In this document: positions 61,690 to 61,830 of the stretch, piece by piece
Numbering within the stretch: the stretch's first letter is position 1
Layout of the letters: every line of letters starts with the position of its first letter
Origin: Escherichia coli
GTDB lineage: Bacteria > Pseudomonadota > Gammaproteobacteria > Enterobacterales > Enterobacteriaceae
Strand: one strand, 5' to 3'
Length of the DNA: 64,000 bases
NCBI RefSeq assembly: GCF_002854065.1
Contig: NZ_CP024147.1
The notes under the pieces: model-generated
Database searches by the model: none
Told to the model about the DNA's origin: nothing
Seen by the model: only the letters and a program-made list of their open reading frames with translations
Position numbers and translations under genes: made by a program

Positions 61690-61830
61690 AATGTTGGCAT
61701 AGTGCCGAGGGTTCCCCCTCACCCTAACCCTCTCCCCGATGGGGCGAGGGGACTGACCGAGCGCGTTGATAGCATTTGTAGGCCGGATAAAGCGTTCACG
61801 CCGCATCCGGCACTCTTTCAGCAACATGGT
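61690..61830. repeat. Composite intergenic repeat: palindromic CCCTC...GAGGG unit plus REP element, downstream of cstA
   Basis: CCCTCACCCTAACCCTCTCCCCGATGGGGCGAGGGGACTGACC followed by GTAGGCCGGATAAAGCGTTCACGCCGCATCCGGCA. Confidence 0.5.

Follow-up and report, generated by a model that had tools for sequence, protein, structure and literature searches.

The 181-base spacer between cstA and ybdD (61664-61844) in the 64,000-nucleotide stretch of DNA analyzed here, hereafter called the window, is very probably non-coding and composed of members of two known families of enterobacterial interspersed repeats, whose hairpins in the cstA mRNA would likely block exonucleases and may attenuate leakily. 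Three consecutive stem-loops make up the spacer: a first hairpin directly behind cstA (hairpin 1), a BoxC hairpin, and a REP. The composite as such is already known, its K-12 ortholog having been tabulated and both repeat families having been described since the 1980s-1990s. What is new here for this locus is an allele census, a comparison with outgroups, a link between hairpin 1 and BoxC inverted pairs, and the placement of published RNA 3' ends at BoxC hairpins.

The window covers the E. coli ent/fep–cstA–ybdD–hcxA region. A megablast search with a 701-base query across the composite returned two 100% identical E. coli chromosomes, under which the annotated gene order is cstA, ybdD, hcxA. 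Among 5,426 complete E. coli genomes, the same query found a match in 5,419, with at least 80% of its length covered in 4,230 genomes only. The cstA coding sequence, which encodes a pyruvate/proton symporter, occupies 59558-61663 on the plus strand and ends with a TAA stop codon at 61661-61663, according to the open reading frame list and the annotation under the 100% matches. The ybdD coding sequence lies on the same strand at 61845-62042 and is preceded by the Shine-Dalgarno sequence GGAGG at 61835-61839 (open reading frame list, annotation, and exact-string coordinates). At this locus the K-12 RefSeq record contains coding sequences only and no REP or BoxC repeat features, and an Rfam scan of 59000-64000 at permissive thresholds yielded nothing at the gathering score; the match of the Rfam family naRNA4 (REP325-derived RNA) to the REP hairpin was below threshold (32.2 versus 59.5 bits). 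That the spacer encodes a small protein, from a 50-amino-acid open reading frame at 61681-61833(+) or a 65-amino-acid one at 61666-61863(-), is extremely improbable. Both frames are present in the mechanical open reading frame list; however, they are composed nearly wholly of repeat sequence, no feature is annotated there in the listed top-scoring E. coli records, and both were rejected because indels of 6 to 69 bp between natural alleles shift or destroy them.

Judged by its sequence, the left unit of the composite is a BoxC repeat, also known as PIT, TMECO type A, or HPG1. The sequence-only reading of this DNA had described a CCCTC...GAGGG palindrome immediately followed by a canonical REP in the cstA-ybdD gap. 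Both motifs are indeed there, the palindrome pattern having one forward match in the window against 0.00 expected in shuffled sequences and the REP-core regular expression three copies in 64 kb against 0.02. In the cstA mRNA, the palindrome corresponds to the BoxC hairpin at 61728-61751 (plus strand), written CCCTCTCCCC-GAT-GGGGCGAGGGG, with Watson-Crick pairing of its arms. A wider 21-nt G-tract motif, GGGAGAGGGTTAGGGTGAGGG, occurs once in the window, on the minus strand at 61716-61736 (0.05 expected). The 35-nt BoxC core reads along the minus strand from 61750 to 61716 as CCCTCGCCC-CATCG-GGGAGAGGG-TTA-GGGTGAGGG, followed by G. By regular expression, it matches exactly the TMECO pattern 5'-CCCTCNCCC N3-6 GGGNGAGGG N3 GGGNGAGGG[G/T/C/-] of Holder et al. 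2015 (PMC4666352). Since a second loop of TTA denotes TMECO type A and CCG denotes type B, the window copy is of type A, or HPG1. Holder et al. 2015 (PMC4666352) identified TMECO with the repeat known in the 1990s as BoxC and with the PIT element of Maher, a name that goes back to Hoyne/Maher 2000, and the same family appears as HPG1/HPG2 in Kaplan et al. 2016 (PMC5100583). In Table 1 of the latter, the K-12 copy is HPG1 no. 19, at 632058 (-), with a value of 51 on the side of cstA and of 108 on the side of ybdD, both genes being drawn as >>>. The third tract of the K-12 copy carries one substitution, and this copy does not satisfy the strict TMECO pattern, to which the window copy conforms canonically. 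An independent survey treats BoxC as a known E. coli family of 56 bp, with 32 copies in the literature and 22 found by the model of that survey; 23 copies have been reported in K-12.

To define how far the unit extends beyond its core, 11 K-12 BoxC loci were compared side by side. These copies have about 18 nt in common on one side of the core (…GAGCGCAC..GAnCGGTC) and 14-25 nt on the other (GAACAGGCCGGCACTGG..AACATT). The copy behind cstA has both flanks, an 18-nt arm at 61751-61768 (GACTGACCGAGCGCGTTG) and a stretch at about 61690-61715 that aligns with GAACAGGCCGGCACTGG..AACATT of the other copies, so the full unit spans about 61690-61768 on the minus strand and the 26 bases between the BoxC palindrome and the REP are mostly BoxC arm. 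The REP therefore does lie downstream of the palindrome, and "immediately" is slightly loose for a distance of 26 nt. In its core, type A loop (TTA), flanks, intergenic setting, and multi-copy nature, the unit agrees with published BoxC/TMECO elements, and nothing essential is different. A 112-nt query with the left unit located it, in 5,425 of the 5,426 complete genomes, at 1-35 places each (median, 18), almost all of them chromosomal, and the REP was found in at least 40 places per record, again in 5,425 of 5,426. The whole-genome copy search that had been proposed for both motifs thus shows that neither is unique.

The right unit is a single copy of a canonical y-type REP and a predicted TnpA(REP) substrate. 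Located by an inverted-repeat finder and a pattern search at 61778-61812 on the plus strand (GTAGGCCGGATAAAGCGTTCACGCCGCATCCGGCA), it begins with GTAG (61778-61781) and forms a 35-nt imperfect palindrome with an AA/GC bulge. The determinants published for E. coli TnpA(REP), namely a 5' GTAG, a 35-nt imperfect palindrome, the A12A13/G26C27 bulge, T11, and G32 (PMC8266576), can all be read off 61778-61812, which agrees with the earlier suggestion that REP-associated transposases may recognize the element. GTAG, palindrome, bulge, T11, G32, an extragenic position, and high copy number are shared with the y-type REP, or PU, that serves as TnpA(REP)/RAYT substrate (PMC8266576, PMC3479197). Unlike the usual form, the window copy has A rather than G at position 14, with the loss of one upper-stem pair, and it is solitary and unpaired. 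Matches to the BoxC+REP junction that are at least 99% identical to the window number 97 of 3,695, so the window REP is a minority variant. Because the spacer (61664-61844) contains only one REP, it is not a BIME, which comprises at least two alternating REPs and a linker, and the word "cluster", implied for this REP by the mention of a second cluster elsewhere, does not suit it.

Hairpin 1, also detected by the inverted-repeat finder, spans 61665-61728 on the plus strand and sets in 2 nt 3' of the cstA stop codon. Its arms are GTCAGAGTGAGGGGG (61665-61679) and CCCCCTCACCCTAAC (61714-61728), and an inner helix lies within its loop. In K-12 there are five loci at which two BoxC units are inverted around a central hairpin (reported in, among others, Kaplan et al. 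2016, PMC5100583), and hairpin 1 aligns with this central hairpin (GGGTGAGGGG–AAC..GGCACT..AACATT–CCCTCAC). On this alignment, hairpin 1 is homologous to the BoxC-pair center and belongs to the same composite, and the cstA-ybdD arrangement consequently looks like a truncated BoxC inverted pair whose second unit breaks off at a distance of 5 nt from the stop codon of cstA. It differs from the inverted pairs in that only the outermost tract of the partner is present here, where it serves as the 5' arm of hairpin 1. The span of 61690-61830 first given for the composite misses hairpin 1. The loop of hairpin 1 also contains a tandem 10-nt direct repeat at 61681-61700 on the plus strand (ATGTTGGCGA / ATGTTGGCAT), one copy or part of which is absent in the alleles MLI114, Z0117EC0062, and EcPF40; by appearance, the ATTGTTGGC-type tandem units of the loop are a slippage hot spot.

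In the cstA transcript, the composite would fold into three consecutive stable stem-loops. The predicted minimum free energy of the spacer RNA is -78 kcal/mol (z-score of -2.74 against shuffles), and the modules folded alone reach -31.5 kcal/mol for hairpin 1, -17.2 kcal/mol for the BoxC hairpin, and -15.9 kcal/mol for the REP, which folds with an internal loop. No U-tract follows any of the hairpins, the sequences 3' of them being CCTAACCC, ACTGACCG, and CACTCTTT, and the cstA-ybdD spacer does not contain the GC-rich hairpin with a direct U-tract that characterizes an intrinsic (Rho-independent) terminator. A search of 61300-62300 found no intrinsic-terminator-like site, and a crude consensus scan of the same interval, which could have missed a ybdD promoter, found no sigma-70-like site. 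Given a spacer with no U-tract and no promoter-like site, the most likely function of the hairpins would be to halt 3'->5' exonucleases and perhaps to attenuate transcription leakily. A cstA-only mRNA species would thereby be delimited and stabilized, while read-through transcripts would supply ybdD, the product of which acts together with CstA. CstA and YbdD are each required for constitutive pyruvate uptake, and a double mutant is no worse than the single mutants; that ybdD is needed together with cstA favors co-expression of the two genes.

Published 3'-end mapping in K-12 places an RNA end within the spacer, which supports the suggestion that the repeats can affect mRNA stability. Term-seq identified a 3' end at 632098(+) in LB at an OD of 2.0, 84 nt before the ybdD ATG (Adams et al. 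2021). In the coordinate transfer made in this analysis, for which the alignment of K-12 and the window is free of indels here, 632098 corresponds to 61761 on the plus strand, upstream of the REP and 10 nt beyond the BoxC hairpin. The cstA mRNA end that the sequence-only reading had proposed to map is therefore available, and it lies after the BoxC hairpin rather than the REP. The signal at 632098(+) is weak (about 1,700 reads) and appeared under one of the three conditions sampled. The arrangement resembles that of REP stem-loops acting as 3' stabilizers and expression dividers, as at malE-malF (Higgins et al. 1988): in each case, stable GC hairpins lie between co-oriented, functionally linked genes, a 3' end is found just downstream, and there is no U-tract. 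It differs from the malE-malF paradigm in that the BoxC hairpin, and not a REP, is the site of the mapped 3' end, and by analogy the classical role of REPs may extend to BoxC. We infer that the 3' end arises at an exonuclease barrier and that ybdD is co-transcribed with cstA, and any effect on fitness is to be read in the same way.

The same 3' end could be taken to mark a real transcription stop, either factor-dependent or by attenuation of the BIME type, with ybdD transcribed independently and the other strand of the composite stopping antisense read-through from hcxA. We consider this quite unlikely. BIME-associated attenuation is documented, and Kaplan 2016 (PMC5100583) quotes RegulonDB as listing cstA and ybdD as separate single-gene units. 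On the minus strand, a Rho-termination region was called at 631994(-), equivalent to about 61658 in the window and just past hairpin 1, where reads fell from 78 to 10 in the absence of bicyclomycin and from 120 to 69 in its presence (Adams et al. 2021). If so called, ybdD and the composite must be transcribed in antisense, presumably by transcripts that read through from hcxA, which is convergent. In contrast, no Rho region was called by Adams et al. 2021 on the plus strand at the cstA 3' end. The missing U-tracts likewise argue against a stop, as does the lack of promoter-like hexamers upstream of ybdD; the single REP is not a BIME, and the joint need for ybdD and cstA points to co-expression.

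Alleles of the spacer were counted in the 5,426 complete E. coli genomes by junction-specific searches and by differences between searches, and representatives were aligned. BoxC and REP are both present in 3,695 genomes (68%), including the window strain, K-12, and 2013C-4974. BoxC was found at the cstA-ybdD locus in 4,070 genomes, which leaves about 375 (4,070 − 3,695; about 7%) with BoxC only, represented by KK05-19, 500111, and MLI114, and about 160 (4,230 − 4,070; about 3%) with the REP only, represented by Z0117EC0062. A junction-specific search found 1,189 genomes (22%) of the EcPF40 type, a number equal to 5,419 − 4,230; these have neither the BoxC core nor the REP, so neither element is required. 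Immediately ahead of the ribosome-binding site of ybdD, the EcPF40-type spacer has a different, unique small hairpin, GCCCTC-ttaattcag-GAGGGC, with ATTTGTATT behind it. In appearance, this hairpin with ATTTGTATT is more terminator-like. Most of the length variation of the cstA-ybdD intergenic region is caused by the repeats. Hairpin 1 is kept in every natural allele and in four other Escherichia species, and in each of them at least one more hairpin precedes the ribosome-binding site of ybdD.

For comparison with outgroups, representative genomes were scanned with a degenerate pattern for the 5' end of ybdD, which gave only 14 loci (Escherichia, Gilliamella, one MAG, and one contaminant). In E. 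albertii, E. whittamii, Escherichia sp. MOD1-EC7003, and a divergent "E. coli" representative, hairpin 1 is followed by the REP with no BoxC core between them, and these four share the junction …CCCCTCAC-TCTC-AGCATTTCC-AGGCCGG. By parsimony, the BoxC core of about 48-52 bp would have been added within E. coli. Hairpin 1 of the outgroups already resembles the center of a BoxC pair, and it may be that an older full BoxC element decayed outside E. coli, or that the core was regained by gene conversion anchored on hairpin 1. The elements appear from these comparisons to be dispensable and to turn over, with hairpin 1 and the REP common to Escherichia and the BoxC core seen only in E. coli alleles. 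The REP is preceded by CCAG in place of GTAG in E. albertii, E. whittamii, Escherichia sp. MOD1-EC7003, and E. coli Z0117EC0062, and by GTAG in the window, K-12, and one divergent "E. coli"; by the published criteria, the CCAG-preceded copies should not be TnpA(REP) substrates. A near-identical cstA-ybdD BoxC+REP composite was also found in NZ_JARVKW010000112.1, a contig of 465 bp and coverage 0.73 assigned to "Streptomyces sp. DH24", and is almost certainly E. coli contamination of that assembly.

Further K-12 Term-seq ends lie at other BoxC copies, at 624680(-), 624567(-), 3781065(+), and 4231270(-). The end at 624567(-), in the fepB-entC BoxC, has an equivalent relative position to that behind cstA, 11 nt past the hairpin, and two further ends lie 3 nt past the hairpin, one at the lldD BoxC and the other at a BoxC-like copy that is antisense to rluF and has T-for-C changes in the second tract. 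In all four core-containing 3'-end contexts, it is the C-rich strand that is present in the RNA, and the G-rich orientation occurs at none of the listed K-12 Term-seq 3' ends. One of the ends at BoxC copies is strong (100,000-240,000 reads) and lies in the fepB 5' UTR, where the fepB-entC BoxC pair is entered. A tentative and on balance doubtful proposal from these ends is that BoxC hairpins are, like REPs, orientation-specific determinants of RNA 3' ends, with C-rich RNA and ends 3-11 nt past the hairpin, and that swaps between BoxC, REP, and EcPF40-type hairpins tune read-through to ybdD and hence the CstA:YbdD ratio between lineages. The BoxC papers considered here do not describe the element as a 3'-end determinant and report no consistent effect on expression, as in Maher's finding for genes neighboring BoxC/PIT, cited in Holder 2015 (PMC4666352). 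Although the composite matters little beyond correct annotation, the locus is a compact natural experiment in which four hairpin combinations stand between two genes acting jointly in pyruvate uptake, across thousands of strains. It is therefore convenient for testing the effects of BoxC and REP hairpins on mRNA 3' ends, stability, and downstream expression.

The modular presence and absence of the repeats, all four combinations of which exist in nature, would also be expected if they were selfish or neutral passengers, tolerated in the 3' UTR or intercistronic gap and without any role. In line with this, 22% of genomes carry neither element, the spacer of a distant Enterobacteriaceae genome measures 50 nt and contains one small hairpin but no BoxC or REP, and BoxC shows no functional bias among its neighboring genes. 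We nevertheless regard a purely passive presence as somewhat less probable than a role, since the 3' ends coincide with BoxC hairpins at several loci and the elements thus have a molecular consequence at least. Hairpin 1, moreover, is retained in every E. coli allele examined and in the four other Escherichia species, and a second hairpin is always kept.

The variability of the locus bears also on a possible action at the level of DNA, in which the G-rich strand of BoxC, the template strand of cstA, would form an intrastrand purine triplex or switch between a G-quadruplex and a hairpin, stalling polymerases and destabilizing the locus, with the REP adding sites for DNA factors. The TMECO triplex motif fits the window copy, the K-12 orthologous copy is among the putative G-quadruplexes of Kaplan (PMC5100583), triplexes and G-quadruplexes have been obtained in vitro for family members (with consensus oligonucleotides), and across 56 strains the surroundings of TMECO loci showed elevated variability. 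At least four structural alleles exist at cstA-ybdD, the K-12 fepB-entC BoxC pair is absent from the window strain, and about 2,500 genomes have another segment in place of the adk-hemH BoxC segment. However, the cited papers call the in vivo data unclear and report no effect on expression, polymorphism of this kind is equally expected of any dispensable repeat, and the REP here is equally polymorphic, yet has no triplex motif. A DNA-level action thus seems improbable to us, and the preferred reading is still that the hairpins act in the cstA mRNA.

Two of these other BoxC loci were compared between strains. From Kaplan's Table 1, a second BoxC was expected in the window at fepB-entC, where an empty site was found at 54386-54389. 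In K-12, this locus contains a 186-bp imperfectly palindromic BoxC inverted pair with 24-nt terminal inverted arms. TAA flanks the filled K-12 site on both sides and occurs once at the empty site of the window, a pattern suggestive either of an insertion that duplicated 3 bp or of a deletion between TAA repeats. At adk-hemH, the BoxC allele is present in 2,915 genomes, and those in which it is replaced carry a shorter, unrelated segment with a different hairpin, such that the change is a segment replacement with no clean insertion or deletion, and the TAA duplication is not reproduced. At cstA-ybdD itself, the junction is not clean. The reading of BoxC as a MITE, for which terminal inverted repeats and a target-site duplication at filled versus empty sites would be expected, was set aside, the 3-bp TAA duplication being suggested only at fepB-entC.

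The second REP cluster reported for this DNA, between entD and fepA, is borne out and has the makeup of a real two-REP BIME. REP-core matches lie in the entD-fepA gap at 39967-39991 and 40035-40064, the identity of the genes having been checked against K-12. The element (39966-40065) consists of an inverted Z2-type REP (39966-39995) and a y-type REP (40031-40065), placed tail to tail and separated by a 35-nt linker. An IHF-like sequence, ATTCAATATATTG, is present in the linker at 40005-40017 on the minus strand with one mismatch; such one-mismatch matches number 80 in the window against 56 expected, and the linker match is not distinctive alone. With BIME, or RIP/RIB, elements, it shares the inverse Z2 and y REPs, the 35-nt linker, and, as a weak match, the IHF-like motif, whereas the cstA-ybdD spacer has a single REP and no such linker. 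The K-12 Term-seq 3' end at 610126(-), obtained in M63 medium, falls inside the Z2 REP, so that the fepA mRNA ends within the repeat.
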